Assembly: GCF_000007985.2 (NCBI RefSeq)
Contig: NC_002939.5
Location: 1,560,001-1,592,000, forward strand
Direction of reading: 5' to 3'
From: Geobacter sulfurreducens PCA
Lineage (GTDB): Bacteria; Desulfobacterota; Desulfuromonadia; Geobacterales; Geobacteraceae
Length of the DNA: 32,000 bases
Shown: positions 14,843-19,329 of the stretch, one piece after another
How positions within the stretch are numbered: the stretch's first letter is position 1
Layout: each line of letters starts with the position of its first letter
Program-made: the position numbers and the translations under genes
The notes under the pieces: model-generated
The model's database searches: none
The model's input: the letters and a program-made list of their open reading frames with translations, nothing else
Told to the model about the DNA's origin: nothing

Positions 14843-15367
14843 ATGACAACATACTATTCACCGGCCGCCGAGCTCGAAGGCGAGCTCGTCATTGATAAGG
14901 CCGATTTCGTCATCGCTTCGGTGGAGGACGAGATCCGTGCCGACAACCTCTGCCGCAAGCTTCTCTCGCGGTTCTACTTTTCCCTGCTCGAACAGGGAGT
15001 TGATCCCCGGGAAGCCACGCTGCTCGCCAGCGGGGCCGACCATTTCGTTCGCGATTTCGTCATAGGGTTCATGCATCGCAGTCTCTTCGACGATCAACCG
15101 GGCATCGTCCGTCGGTTCGGGGGCAACTGGTACATCGTTCATACGGTGGAACCCTCCGTCGGGGAGCTGGCGATCCACCTGGCAGGCGTGCGGGCTTTCT
15201 ACCGGTTCCTGCTGGAGCGGGACTTGCTGGACGGACCTTTTTTTGAGGAAATAGACCGCGAGTGCTCTGATCTTCCTTATTATGAAGAGCGGATCAAGGC
15301 ATTCTGGGCCATCGAAGGGGACGGTTATCTCGCCTGGGAGCGGGAGTGCTCGTTGAAACAGTGGTGA
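14843..15367 (+). CDS. Hypothetical cytoplasmic protein
   Basis: 174-aa ORF with coding-like composition and an ATG preceded by 'aaaggtgg'. I recognise no domain. Confidence 0.55.
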   Translation: MTTYYSPAAELEGELVIDKADFVIASVEDEIRADNLCRKLLSRFYFSLLEQGVDPREATLLASGADHFVRDFVIGFMHRSLFDDQPGIVRRFGGNWYIVHTVEPSVGELAIHLAGVRAFYRFLLERDLLDGPFFEEIDRECSDLPYYEERIKAFWAIEGDGYLAWERECSLKQW

Positions 15368-15381
15368 ACGGATCAAGGAGG

Positions 15382-16182
15382 ATGGCTATGAAGTTGGCGA
15401 AATGGTTGCTTGGACCGCTGGCGGCACTGGGTATCCTTGCCGGTTGTGCCACGAGCATGACCGACATCAAGGGTTTCAACATGATCTCCATCGAGCAGGA
15501 GAAGGAATTGGGCAACAAGTTTGCCGTGGAGATCGAAAAGCAGCAGCAACCCGTGAACGACCCGGAGGTCCAGCGTTACGTGGACAAGGTAGGCAAGCGG
15601 TTGCTGTCCGGTGCCCGGGCAGTGGAATTCGACTACGTCTTCAAGGTGGTGAAGGATGACAGCGTCAATGCGTTCGCCATCCCCGGCGGACGTGTGTATG
15701 TGCACACGGGCCTGCTGAAGGCGGCTGACAACGAAACGGAGCTGGCCGGCGTCCTGGCCCACGAGATCAACCATGCGGTCGCCCGTCACGGCACTAGGCA
15801 GATGACTCAGGAGTATGGCTATTCTCTGGTCCTTTCCCTTGTCCTGGGGGACAACCCCAACATGTTGGCGCAGCTGGCCGGCCAACTCTTCGGCAAGGCG
15901 GGTATGATGTCATACAGCCGGGAATACGAAAACCAGGCAGATTTCCTCGGCGTGGAGACCATGTACAAGGCCGGATATAACCCCAACGGCCTGACGAGCT
16001 TTTTCCAGAAGCTGAACGCGATGGACGGCGGTACCCAGAGTAACGTGGCCCGGTTCTTTTCGACCCATCCCCTTACGTCGGAGCGGATTCAACGGGTGCA
16101 GGCCGAGATCGCCAAGCTTCCTCCCCAGCGCTATCTGACGGACGAGACGGAATTCAAGAAAATAAAGGGGCGGCTCAAGTAA
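15382..16182 (+). CDS. M48-family zinc metallopeptidase lipoprotein
   Basis: AAGGAGG SD before ATG 15382, lipobox 'LAGC', and the HExxH motif 'HEINHAVARH' with a downstream 'E..AD' region. Confidence 0.88.
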   Translation: MAMKLAKWLLGPLAALGILAGCATSMTDIKGFNMISIEQEKELGNKFAVEIEKQQQPVNDPEVQRYVDKVGKRLLSGARAVEFDYVFKVVKDDSVNAFAIPGGRVYVHTGLLKAADNETELAGVLAHEINHAVARHGTRQMTQEYGYSLVLSLVLGDNPNMLAQLAGQLFGKAGMMSYSREYENQADFLGVETMYKAGYNPNGLTSFFQKLNAMDGGTQSNVARFFSTHPLTSERIQRVQAEIAKLPPQRYLTDETEFKKIKGRLK

Positions 16183-16184
16183 CC

Positions 16185-17063
16185 ATGGACACCGATTGGA
16201 GTAATCTCGCCGTCAGACTTGAACGTCTGCTCGAACGGTTTGAACGGATCATTGACCGCCATGATCCGGTTCTTCCCCGGGATCCGGCCTTTTTCGACGG
16301 AGCCATTGCCTTCCGCTGGCGCCGGTCGGGTGAACAAGGCACGTTCGAGCCGGTGACGCATCCCCATCTTCCCGATCCTGCCGATCTGGTTGGCATTGAT
16401 CTGGTCCGCGAGGACTTGATCCGGAATACCGCCCAGTTCATGGACGGCTACCCCGCCAACAACGTCTTGCTGTGGGGGGAGCGGGGCACCGGCAAATCGA
16501 CCTGCGTCAAGGGAATGCTCCGGCTGTTTGCGGACCGTGGACTGCGGCTCGTGGAGGTCCAGCGGGACGATCTGATGAGCCTGCCGGCTCTCATTGCAGC
16601 CCTGAGATCGGTGCCGCGGCGCTTCATCCTTTTCTGTGACGATCTCTCGTTCGGCGAAGGGGAGGGAGGATACCGGGAGCTCAAGGCTCTTCTTGAAGGC
16701 AGCATCGAGGCAAAGCCGACGAATATCCTGTTCTATGCCACCTCTAACCGTCGCCACCTGCTTCCCGAGCGGATGGAGGATAATCTCAGCAGCGAGATCC
16801 ACCCCGAAGAGGCCGTGTCCGAAAAGCTCTCCTTGGCCGACCGGTTCGGCATGGCGCTGGGGTTCTATCCGTTCAGCCAGGACGTATATCTGTCCATCGT
16901 TGAGCGATATGCGGAAAAATTCGCTCTTCCCATGGAGCGGGAGGCGCTCCGGAAAGAAGCGCATCTGTGGGCCATGTACCGTGGAAGCCGGTCGGGACGC
17001 TCTGCCCGTCAGTTTATCGATGATCTTGCCGGGCGGCTCGGTGTCAGGCTCAACGATCGTTGA
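16185..17063 (+). CDS. DUF815-family P-loop ATPase
   Basis: Walker A 'LLWGERGTGKST' and Walker B 'FILFCDDLSF', with size (~290 aa) and layout typical of DUF815. Confidence 0.8.
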   Translation: MDTDWSNLAVRLERLLERFERIIDRHDPVLPRDPAFFDGAIAFRWRRSGEQGTFEPVTHPHLPDPADLVGIDLVREDLIRNTAQFMDGYPANNVLLWGERGTGKSTCVKGMLRLFADRGLRLVEVQRDDLMSLPALIAALRSVPRRFILFCDDLSFGEGEGGYRELKALLEGSIEAKPTNILFYATSNRRHLLPERMEDNLSSEIHPEEAVSEKLSLADRFGMALGFYPFSQDVYLSIVERYAEKFALPMEREALRKEAHLWAMYRGSRSGRSARQFIDDLAGRLGVRLNDR

Positions 17064-17137
17064 TGGCTACATGCGGAGCAACGGTCCATGGGTACAACAG
17101 TAGTGCGAAGCAATGATACGATGCTGGAGGAAGAGGC

Positions 17138-17179
17138 ATGAGTCAGCCCGGTCCCGACGTGGATCGCCCCCCCTGTTGA
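17138..17179 (+). other. 13-codon ORF (MSQPGPDVDRPPC-TGA) in the same frame as hgcA; either a uORF or a Sec-containing N-terminal extension
   Basis: GGAGG (17126-17130) lies 7 nt before ATG 17138. TGA at 17177-17179 is in frame with GTG 17222 and no other stop lies between. A hairpin begins immediately after the TGA. Confidence 0.4.
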
Positions 17180-17221
17180 GGTCCAAAGACGCCTGCGGTC
17201 AGCGGGACCATTAACGAAAAT

Positions 17222-18241
17222 GTGCCGGGTTTTCTTCGTTGGCTCGATACCCCGGCGGGGCGCGTGCCGGTCATCTCCACGCAACTGGCGATGCGCGATA
17301 CCCTCGGAGCCTGGCAGGCACGCTGGGGTATCGGACGCATGTCGTACTTGGTGCCGCCCGGTCTGTACGCCATTGGCGCTCCCGGCCCCGGGACCCCGGT
17401 GGTGGTCACTGCCAACTACAAGATGAGCTACGATAGTGTCCGGTGGGAGCTGGCCGGCAGAGACATCTGGCTTCTGGTTCTGGAAACCCACGGCATTAAT
17501 GTCTGGTGCGCCGCCGGCAAGGGGACCTTCGGCACCGATGAGATCGTCAAGCGAGTCGGCCTCACCAGTTTGTCGCGGATAGTGAATCACCGCACGCTGC
17601 TGCTGCCAATGCTGGGGGCTCCCGGTGTGGCTGCCCATCTGGTGCGACAGCGCACTGGCTTTAAGGTCAGGTATGCCACTATCCGGGCCGCAGACCTGCC
17701 GGCATATCTGGATAACGGCATGATCGCGACGTCTGCCATGCGGCAGCTCACGTTCACAACTGTCGAACGGCTTGTTCTCACCCCCATCGAGCTGGTTGCC
17801 GCCTGTAAATGGGGGCTGCCTGTCATGGCTCTGATTGTGCTGGCCGCGGGATTTTCGGATGGGGCATTCTCTCCAGAGAGGGCGGTTCCCGCGGCTATCG
17901 CCTGGGGGGCGACGATCGCGACCGGAGCCGTTGGCGCTCCACTTCTGCTGCCATGGCTTCCCGGCCGAAGCTTTGCTGTGAAGGGGGCCTCGCTCGGCCT
18001 GCTGCTCGCGGCTCTCCTTGTCTGGTCCGGGCGCGGCATGGTCTCTCTTCACGAGGTCGCAGCGCTCTTTTTCATTACCCCCGCTGTCTGCTCATTCCTC
18101 GCCCTGACGTTTACCGGAAGTACGCCCTTTACCTCGCGTTCGGGTGTCAAGAAGGAGATGCGGGTCGCCCTTCCCGTCATGACCGCCGCGCTCGTGGCAG
18201 GGCTCACGTCATGGCTGTTCGGCAGTTTCCTGTTATCTTGA
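17222..18241 (+). CDS. hgcA: Mercury methylation corrinoid protein HgcA
   Basis: The diagnostic cap-helix motif 'GINVWCAAGKGTFGT' is present in an N-terminal corrinoid-binding domain, followed by a C-terminal multi-TM domain and then hgcB. The GTG 17222 start has no SD, so the true start may be ATG 17138 (see findings). Confidence 0.9.
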   Translation: MPGFLRWLDTPAGRVPVISTQLAMRDTLGAWQARWGIGRMSYLVPPGLYAIGAPGPGTPVVVTANYKMSYDSVRWELAGRDIWLLVLETHGINVWCAAGKGTFGTDEIVKRVGLTSLSRIVNHRTLLLPMLGAPGVAAHLVRQRTGFKVRYATIRAADLPAYLDNGMIATSAMRQLTFTTVERLVLTPIELVAACKWGLPVMALIVLAAGFSDGAFSPERAVPAAIAWGATIATGAVGAPLLLPWLPGRSFAVKGASLGLLLAALLVWSGRGMVSLHEVAALFFITPAVCSFLALTFTGSTPFTSRSGVKKEMRVALPVMTAALVAGLTSWLFGSFLLS

Positions 18242-18253
18242 CCGGGAGGTAGC

Positions 18254-18538
18254 ATGATCGGTTTCCAGTATCTTGCCAATGTCGCCACCCTGGAGTTTAT
18301 CGGAGAGAAATGCGTTGGTTGCGGCATGTGTGTTGAGGTTTGCCCGCATCAGGTATTTCGTTTGGAAGGCTCAAAGGCGGAGGTTGTCGCACGTGACGAC
18401 TGCATGGAGTGCGGGGCCTGCGCGGTGAATTGCCCTGCAAGTGCGATCCGTGTGGATGCCGGGGTAGGCTGCGCATCGGGGATGATCAATGAGTGGCTGG
18501 CCGGTGTTGTCGGTAGCAGGGGGGGCAGGTGCTGCTGA
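18254..18538 (+). CDS. hgcB: Mercury methylation ferredoxin HgcB (2x[4Fe-4S])
   Basis: 'CVGCGMCVEVCP' and 'CMECGACAVNCP' (the hgcB signature C(M/I)ECGA), plus the C-terminal vicinal 'CC'. GGGAGG SD lies before ATG 18254. Confidence 0.92.
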   Translation: MIGFQYLANVATLEFIGEKCVGCGMCVEVCPHQVFRLEGSKAEVVARDDCMECGACAVNCPASAIRVDAGVGCASGMINEWLAGVVGSRGGRCC

Positions 18539-18562
18539 TCCATCTTGGGTGGAATTTCGTGA

Positions 18563-18591
18563 TTGACATGGCAATGTGGGGCTGATAATTA
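18563..18591 (+). promoter_or_regulatory. Sigma70 promoter of the carbonic anhydrase gene
   Basis: TTGACA (18563-18568), 17-nt spacer, TAATTA (18586-18591). Confidence 0.55.
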
Positions 18592-18607
18592 ATGATTACA
18601 AATCATT
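18591..18607. promoter_or_regulatory. Perfect 7-3-7 inverted repeat (candidate operator) overlapping the -10/+1 region
   Basis: AATGATT-ACA-AATCATT starts at the last base of the -10 hexamer. Confidence 0.4.
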
Positions 18608-18627
18608 GCATCCAGGGAGGGAGCGGC

Positions 18628-19329
18628 ATGAAGAACAGAAGTTCCATGGTCAGAGGGATGTTTTTGGGCGCCGGCGCGGTGGCTATCTCCGCTGTTCTGG
18701 CATTCGGATCCGGTGGCGTGGGCGTAACGGCGGACGAGGCTCTGCAACAGCTCATGGACGGCAACAAGCGGTATGTGGCGGGGCAGATGAAAACGTGCAG
18801 CGCCAGCGACACCGCCAAGCGCGAATCATTGGCCAAGGGGCAAAAACCTTACGCGATAATTCTTTCGTGCTCAGACTCTCGTGTTCCGCCCGAGATTATT
18901 TTTGATAAAACCATGGGTGAAATATTTGTGGTTCGCGTGGCGGGTAACATTCCCGACCCGGTCGTCCTTGGCAGCATCGAGTATGCGGCTGAACATATCG
19001 GATCGCCCCTTGTCATGGTCCTCGGACATGAGCGCTGTGGTGCGGTGACTGCCACCGTTGAGGCCAAGGGAAAGGCGGAGGGCAATATCGGATCCATTGT
19101 CAAGACCATTGCTCCTGCCGCCGCAAAAGCCCTTAAGGAAGGAAAAGGCAAGTCGAAGGCTGAAGTTGTTGAGGCCGCTACCGATGCTAATCTCGATCTC
19201 GTTGCTGCCAGTCTGACCAAAAAATCGCCCGTTATCCGGCACCTCGTCAAGGAAGGTACGTTGAAGATCGTGAAGGCCAAATACGATCTTGATGACGGAA
19301 CGGTTGTCCTCATGGATGGCAAGAAATAA
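18628..19329 (+). CDS. Beta-class carbonic anhydrase with N-terminal signal peptide
   Basis: 'SCSDSRVPPE' and 'GHERCGAV' are the zinc-ligand motifs of beta-CA. Signal-like 'MKNRSSMVRGMFLGAGAVAISAVLAFG'. GGGAGGGAG SD lies before ATG 18628. Confidence 0.9.
   Translation: MKNRSSMVRGMFLGAGAVAISAVLAFGSGGVGVTADEALQQLMDGNKRYVAGQMKTCSASDTAKRESLAKGQKPYAIILSCSDSRVPPEIIFDKTMGEIFVVRVAGNIPDPVVLGSIEYAAEHIGSPLVMVLGHERCGAVTATVEAKGKAEGNIGSIVKTIAPAAAKALKEGKGKSKAEVVEAATDANLDLVAASLTKKSPVIRHLVKEGTLKIVKAKYDLDDGTVVLMDGKK

Follow-up and report, generated by a model that had tools for sequence, protein, structure and literature searches.

Where does hgcA begin in Geobacter sulfurreducens PCA, and what happens at the single stop codon that lies between its best start signals and the recognisable protein? 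HgcA is the enzyme that produces neurotoxic methylmercury. The gene is located in a window of 32,000 nucleotides (nt), which is the whole stretch of DNA that was analysed (contig NC_002939.5, positions 1,560,001 to 1,592,000), and all positions given here are those of the window. A preliminary description of this DNA had proposed that HgcA carries an N-terminal Pro-Cys-Sec-Gly extension, where Sec (U) is selenocysteine, together with a hairpin like a selenocysteine insertion sequence (SECIS). This extension is supported by Cys codons that align with the TGA, by conservation of the peptide and by a UGA-linked hairpin in relatives. Comparison of the sequences makes it very likely that hgcA starts at ATG 17138 and not at GTG 17222, and that the UGA at 17177-17179 is translated as Sec to give a protein with the tail MSQPGPDVDRPP-C-U-GP... 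at its N-terminus; Sec decoding at this UGA, considered by itself, is highly likely. The Sec codon in this HgcA (GSU1440) is real and was already published in 2022/2023. The comparative support for a SECIS hairpin is a modest addition to the published work. The features involved are the following.

17126 to 17130, + strand: Shine-Dalgarno (SD) sequence GGAGG, read directly, with a 7-nt spacer to ATG 17138
17138 to 17140, + strand: probable hgcA ATG start codon; after the in-frame stop TGA 17114-17116 no other ATG, GTG or TTG precedes the Sec codon
17138 to 18241, + strand: probable full-length hgcA coding sequence, 367 residues including Sec14, plus the stop codon
17174 to 17176, + strand: Cys13 codon TGT, first member of the Cys-Sec pair; of 17 close TGA loci, 16 have Cys here and one (L018) has Ser
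17177 to 17179, + strand: TGA predicted to be read as Sec14, motif P-C-U-G-P; it aligns with TGC or TGT in 40 loci and with TGA in 24 others
17180 to 17221, + strand: segment from the Sec codon to the old GTG start (GPKTPAVSGTINEN), which would be translated only upon UGA decoding
17192 to 17206, + strand: putative SECIS hairpin, stem CCUGC/GCGGG, 5 bp with one U.G pair, apical loop GGUCA; helix found by RNAalifold

The open reading frame (ORF) track shows hgcA only as 17222..18241 (339 aa), which is 84 bases short at the 5' end. The frame reads MSQPGPDVDRPPC-TGA(17177-17179)-GPKTPAVSGTINEN-V(GTG 17222)PGFLRW... and runs on into the 339-aa HgcA ORF. The residues before the TGA are M-S-Q-P-G-P-D-V-D-R-P-P-C, and those after it are G-P-K-T-P-A-V-S-G-T-I-N-E-N, followed by GTG 17222. 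From ATG 17138 to the HgcA body the frame is interrupted by a single stop, the TGA at 17177-17179. Because the previous in-frame stop is TGA 17114-17116 and no other ATG, GTG or TTG occurs before 17138, ATG 17138 is the sole possible start of an extension. The coordinates of the SD sequence, its spacer, the ATG and the single in-frame TGA were re-read and are correct as first described, and so is the statement that GTG 17222 has no SD sequence. No SD-like sequence is found upstream of this GTG, where the preceding letters are ...ACCATTAACGAAAAT-GTG. The GGAG...ATG arrangement is also kept in the closest relative (L081). A scan for promoters and terminators around hgcA gave nothing above chance. 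When Sec is written as Cys, the extended protein scores 447.2 bits against the NCBIfam model NF040863 HgcA_corrinoid (cut-off 275). The cap-helix motif of HgcA, N(V/I)WCA(A/G)GK with the Co-ligand Cys, is present as GINVWCAAGKGTFG, and the aligned sequences all share the motif residues. The N-terminal extension holds the pentapeptide PPC-U-GP, and the full length of 367 aa lies within the 363-400 aa of the selenoprotein form of HgcA.

Studies done by Haft have described this extension. HgcA with a previously unrecognised N-terminal extension and an invariant PCUGP was reported as a selenoprotein, and PCUGP was found in 20 of 20 short HgcAs (Haft, 10.1101/2022.07.06.499078). The extension printed there for GSU1440 of G. 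sulfurreducens PCA, MSQPGPDVDRPPCU-GPKTPAVSGTINENVPGFLRWLDTPAGR, matches that of the window residue for residue. The gene in the window is almost certainly this locus, and the finding is therefore already known. The gene, the motif, the position and the interpretation are the same as for the HgcA selenoprotein of Haft (NF040863), in which the CU pair is viewed as a heavy-metal ligand that echoes the CC pair of HgcB. Reference data for predicting such selenoproteins were added to the NCBI pipeline PGAP (Haft, 10.1101/2022.07.06.499078). The preprint is later cited as Haft & Gwadz (J Bacteriol 2023; 205:e00259-22), and NF040863 is listed as a 'CU' selenoprotein family in a 2026 review (PMC13188914). 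In a text search of the preprint the term 'SECIS' occurs 4 times, with 0 occurrences in the HgcA section (10.1101/2022.07.06.499078).

The codon that aligns with the Sec codon was read in 80 hgcA loci, taken from one-per-species genomes and ranked by similarity (best 63% identity), and in the window, for a total of 81. It was read in the hgcA frame, about 110 residues before the cap-helix Cys, and its states are as follows.

25 loci (including the window): Cys-TGA
40 loci: Cys-TGC or Cys-TGT
15 loci: no scorable Cys-Cys or Cys-TGA motif

The preliminary description had asked whether the TGA aligns with Cys codons in relatives, and TGC or TGT does occupy the aligned codon there in the same PPC-C-GP context. 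A protein search found thousands of HgcA homologues in two length classes, one of ~322-349 aa (short) and one of ~373-402 aa (long). In an alignment of 21 sequences, D-K-P-P-C-C-G-P of all the long homologues fell exactly on R-P-P-C-TGA-G-P of the window, and the spacing to V-P-G-F is 14 residues in the long homologues and the window alike. In an alignment of 82 sequences, conservation is at least 90% at C13, C14, G15 and P16, and the Cys13 position is nearly invariant among the Cys-form homologues. In the closest relatives, with 87% and 83% protein identity, the TGA and the hairpin are retained, and a start codon lies in frame upstream.

In this sample Cys-Cys (40 loci) is more common than Cys-Sec (24 plus the window), whereas the preprint calls 'most' HgcA proteins selenoproteins. 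Sampling may account for the gap. One locus (L018:3995-4033) has Ser instead of Cys ahead of the TGA (PPS-UGA-GP) and a CCC motif 12 codons upstream, and it retains the SECIS hairpin; this is a variant arrangement of the presumed metal-binding residues.

Is the segment beyond the UGA translated? The subtype to which the window belongs is represented by 17 loci, 16 with C-TGA-G-P and L018 with S-TGA-G-P. In these loci G+1, P+2, A+6, G+9, I+11 and P+16 are invariant as amino acids while the third codon positions vary, with 2-4 bases, and P-3, P-2 and C-1 ahead of the TGA follow the same pattern of kept residues and varying wobble positions. The conserved pattern is (P)PC before the TGA and GP..A..G.I.E.VPGF after it. 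The extension is thus conserved at the protein level on both sides of the TGA in the 17 loci, and the variation by codon position indicates that the peptide is under purifying selection on both sides. In 11 of the 17 loci the stretch from the TGA to VPGF contains no ATG, GTG or TTG, and two loci are free of start codons for 45 codons. In the 11 loci without a start codon after the TGA, the conserved downstream peptide can therefore be obtained only by decoding the TGA. The Val codon at the position of GTG 17222 is GTG in just 2 of the 17 loci.

The starts chosen by gene callers for Sec-type hgcA differ from species to species (MPAISAQ, MSSRLTA, MPIVSTD, MPAVSGK and MGGEITEK in homologues P0002, P0003, P0004, P0008 and P0015). 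These differing starts are truncation artefacts, and some of the false starts cut off two N-terminal beta-strands that are modelled with high confidence. Public HgcA entries of ~320-350 aa are best regarded as truncated. The N-terminus is incomplete in this way in most database entries, and the constructs of biochemical studies may be affected too. The length of the tail ahead of the Cys-Sec pair is evolutionarily labile, being 13 residues in the window and 30-45 in most relatives. In the 83%-identical relative CTG stands at the codon aligned with ATG 17138 (L084:1366 and L085:853), and its frame is open upstream to in-frame ATGs 12-22 codons further, where in the window it is closed by TGA 17114-17116.

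The preliminary description had claimed two alternative hairpins after the TGA. Both exist at their coordinates, and they fared differently in the comparison with relatives: the hairpin at 17192-17206 is conserved and covaries, and the stem GGTCC/GGACC is not conserved. The arms of the conserved hairpin are CCTGC (17192-17196) and GCGGG (17202-17206), and its loop is GGTCA (17197-17201). In the window the helix starts 12 nt downstream of the UGA and its loop, GGUCA, 18 nt downstream. An ungapped alignment of 63 columns (A2), made from the 17 TGA loci of the window subtype, was folded with RNAalifold and gave a single helix, in which columns 18-23 pair with columns 29-34; this helix corresponds to 17192-17196/17202-17206 in the window. 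In a version with 7 pairs, 94% of the cells are paired across the 17 loci, and 43-77% once the 3' partners are slid by 1-3 columns. The observed pairing and covariation scores were reached by 0 of 500 shuffles. Pair 19-33 is seen as U-A, C-G, A-U, G-C and U-G, that is, as four Watson-Crick types and a wobble, and the loop opens with an invariant G (column 25). The helix of most relatives occupies columns 18-34, a length of 17 nt, and begins 11 nt after the UGA. The two closest relatives retain a CC(C)GC-GGUCA-GCGGG hairpin, and position 17194 of the window forms a U.G pair where L081, L084 and L085 have C-G.

The hairpin with the GGUCA loop is linked to the UGA. In the TGA loci 97% of the cells in these columns are paired and local hairpins of -8 to -15 kcal/mol are formed, whereas the six closest Cys-form loci are 53% paired in the same columns and are mostly without a hairpin. 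The other stem, GGTCC 17180-17184 / GGACC 17205-17209, was rejected as a functional element, its 3' arm GGACC being found only in the window and in one other locus (L001).

How does this hairpin compare with known SECIS elements? Zhang and Gladyshev reportedly set out in 2005 that in a bacterial SECIS (bSECIS) element the apical loop lies about 16-37 nt from the UGA and that G is among its first bases. The hgcA hairpin agrees with these features, as it is a stem-loop 3' of the UGA with a loop that begins at 18 nt and an invariant loop G. Like the E. coli fdhF SECIS, it is a short hairpin just 3' of the UGA, within the coding sequence, with a G (GGU) opening the apical loop. From the work of Liu et al. 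in 1998 and Huttenhofer et al. in 1996, the minimal fdhF element is reportedly an upper stem-loop of 17 nt that lies 11 nt downstream of the UGA. The hgcA helix of most relatives has this same length and distance. Unlike the fdhF SECIS, the hgcA hairpin has no identified bulged U, its loop is 3 or 5 nt and there is no sequence homology between the two.

A second class of hgcA with the motif Cys-UGA-Pro is present in metagenome-assembled genomes that are Desulfobacterales-like or Syntrophobacter-like (8 loci).

TGA positions of the Cys-UGA-Pro class: L020:1035, L029:4037, L033:4010, L036:1178, L037:4037, L040:3959, L042:267 and L074:4010

This class has an unrelated hairpin of 6-7 bp with a 4-nt loop ~16 nt after the UGA, a distance described as like that of the window subtype. 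Examples are GGCUC-AGUU-GAGCC and GGCCC-GGCA-GGGCC, and compensatory changes are seen between members. For the Geobacter-type hgcA a minimal SECIS with covariation can be defined (17 nt, beginning 11-12 nt after the UGA, with a G-first loop), and a separate one for the C-U-P type. These definitions could be used for re-annotating truncated hgcA in metagenomes.

In the bacterial Sec pathway a complex of SelB, GTP and Sec-tRNA(Sec) binds a hairpin 3' of the UGA. For hgcA, translation would initiate at ATG 17138, and the hairpin at 17192-17206 would be bound by SelB-GTP-Sec-tRNA(Sec) while the ribosome is at the UGA. Sec would then be inserted at codon 14 in place of termination, and translation would run on into the corrinoid-binding domain to give the full-length protein of 367 residues. 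SelB binding and the actual incorporation of selenium are steps that we infer from the established bacterial pathway. The Sec machinery of G. sulfurreducens is taken here from the literature and not from the genome sequence. Among the Sec users given by Zhang et al. (2006, PMC1794560) is G. sulfurreducens, with SelD and with 8 selenoproteins that do not include HgcA, and all 20 species examined by Haft, G. sulfurreducens included, encode Sec machinery (10.1101/2022.07.06.499078).

Several observations weigh against Sec decoding and a functional tail. A tRNA scan of the window found no tRNA-Sec and no tRNA genes at all, and Pfam annotation of 20 ORFs in the window found no sel gene. A literature search found no report of selenium measured in HgcA. 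The hairpin of the window is the weakest of the 17 compared, with 5 bp, one U.G pair and -8.1 kcal/mol. The region 17174-17235 folded as a single sequence has a minimum free energy (MFE) of -18.5 kcal/mol against a shuffle mean of -15.9 kcal/mol (z = -0.85), which is at chance level, and the MFE structure is the non-conserved GGUCC/GGACC stem. The single-sequence fold is no better than shuffled sequence; the significance of the hairpin comes solely from the comparison with relatives, where it is strong. Rfam searches of the whole window at the gathering threshold and of 17000-17400 at E <= 10 gave two chance-level sRNA matches only and no SECIS; Rfam is not known to hold a bacterial SECIS family or model. 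A His-tagged HgcA of Pseudodesulfovibrio mercurii ND132, for which the C93 numbering is that of the short annotation, was active in methylation in an E. coli lysate. This construct presumably lacked the extension, in which case the tail would not be essential for catalysis in vitro.

What else could the TGA represent? One answer is that it arose by nonsense mutation or sequencing error, or is coincidental, and that the frame upstream is meaningless; the prior chance of an in-frame arrangement is indeed 1 in 3. This explanation is refuted, since 24 independent loci from different species also have TGA at this codon, preceded by a conserved (P)PC, and the closest relatives retain it. Its probability is negligible. 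Another answer is that ATG 17138 to TGA 17177 is a regulatory upstream ORF (uORF) of 13 codons and that HgcA is initiated or reinitiated separately at GTG 17222. GTG 17222 is a legal start that is used by ORF and gene callers, and both the activity of the short ND132 HgcA and the insignificance of the hairpin in a single sequence fit such an arrangement. However, the 14 codons from the TGA to GTG 17222 are conserved as protein while their wobble positions vary, which together with the lack of a start codon there in 11 of 17 TGA loci and the rarity of GTG at the Val codon speaks against separate initiation. In addition, homologues have an uninterrupted ORF with Cys in place of the TGA, the presence of the hairpin is tied to the TGA, and GTG 17222 has no SD sequence. 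A uORF is thus very unlikely.

The two kinds of initiation could also be combined, with a long Sec form made when selenium is available and a short functional HgcA made from GTG 17222 when it is scarce, in this species. The window does have GTG at the Val+15 codon, unlike most relatives, and what is presumably the short form shows catalysis in lysate, but the absence of an SD sequence before this GTG and the failure of relatives to keep it as a start leave such a dual output as improbable as the uORF. Less probable than either is that near-cognate or suppressor decoding places a standard amino acid such as Trp or Cys at the UGA. In favour of this, the literature search found no report of selenium in HgcA, and the Sec machinery of the genome is known from the literature. 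Against it, SelB-dependent decoding is marked by just such a hairpin, tied to the UGA, placed at the canonical distance and opening its loop with G. Use of Sec is documented for G. sulfurreducens, and the codon alternates specifically with Cys, as Sec sites typically do.

What might Sec decoding provide to HgcA? An AlphaFold model of a Cys-form homologue (P0017) has a mean predicted local distance difference test (pLDDT) score of 79.6, with residues 1-49, including PPCCGP, below 50. Order begins at VPGF, and the first strands are at 64-70 and 73-78. Because residues 1-49 of the model have such low pLDDT, the Cys-Sec pair is predicted to be on a flexible tail joined to the corrinoid domain, ~15 residues before the first strand. 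It is plausible, by analogy, that the pair is a strong Hg(II) ligand. The tail would capture Hg(II) as a thiolate/selenolate arm and hand it over to the methyl-corrinoid (methyl-cobalamin) site. Binding and delivery of Hg(II) by the tail are suggested by its likeness to the Cys-Cys at the C-terminus of HgcB and to other CU and CC proteins discussed by Haft, and we consider the case for this ligand role to be evenly balanced. The C-terminal CC of HgcB, the C-terminal CC of MerA, the motif of NmerA, the CU of the MerT selenoproteins and the CU of SaoB, SaoC and SaoL are all vicinal Cys-Cys or Cys-Sec pairs on a flexible terminal segment near a metal-handling site, as in the HgcA tail. There is no homology between these proteins and the tail; only the motif and the presumed chemistry are alike.

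A Cys-Sec pair at the N-terminus of HgcA would be an exceptionally strong Hg(II) ligand and would tie selenium availability to mercury methylation. The significance of the pair as a mercury ligand, the link to selenium and the truncated entries have already been set out by Haft (10.1101/2022.07.06.499078). A more tentative proposal, which we regard as rather doubtful, is that the Cys-Sec tail is the physiological entry point of Hg(II) into HgcA and that selenium supply, together with the Sec, Cys or no-tail state, sets natural rates of methylmercury formation. If the tail were the entry point, biochemistry done on constructs from the old annotated start would have missed the native Hg-acceptor site.

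The gene for the partner protein of HgcA follows directly.

18254 to 18538, + strand: hgcB, partner ferredoxin, 123.6 bits against NF040864 HgcB_ferredoxin (cut-off 99)

HgcB ends in Cys-Cys (...GGRCC), and its GVGC motif has Cys and not Sec. Sec at the GVG-C position has been reported in about 6% of HgcBs (Haft, 10.1101/2022.07.06.499078), and among the fetched loci a pattern search recognised HgcB in 31, of which 0 had TGA at this position. Elsewhere in the window, three sizeable ORFs (6-1040 on the + strand, 991-1959 on the - strand and 14843-15367 on the + strand) are without a Pfam match at E <= 1e-5. The first of these overlaps the second, which is on the opposite strand, and therefore at most one of the two is likely to be real. 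Upstream of hgcAB there are genes for an M48 peptidase and a DUF815 ATPase, and downstream there are a beta-type carbonic anhydrase gene and one for a hybrid histidine kinase. The order M48 peptidase, DUF815 AAA-type ATPase, hgcA, hgcB, beta-carbonic anhydrase and convergent hybrid histidine kinase is shared by the window (15346-19329), L081 and L084.

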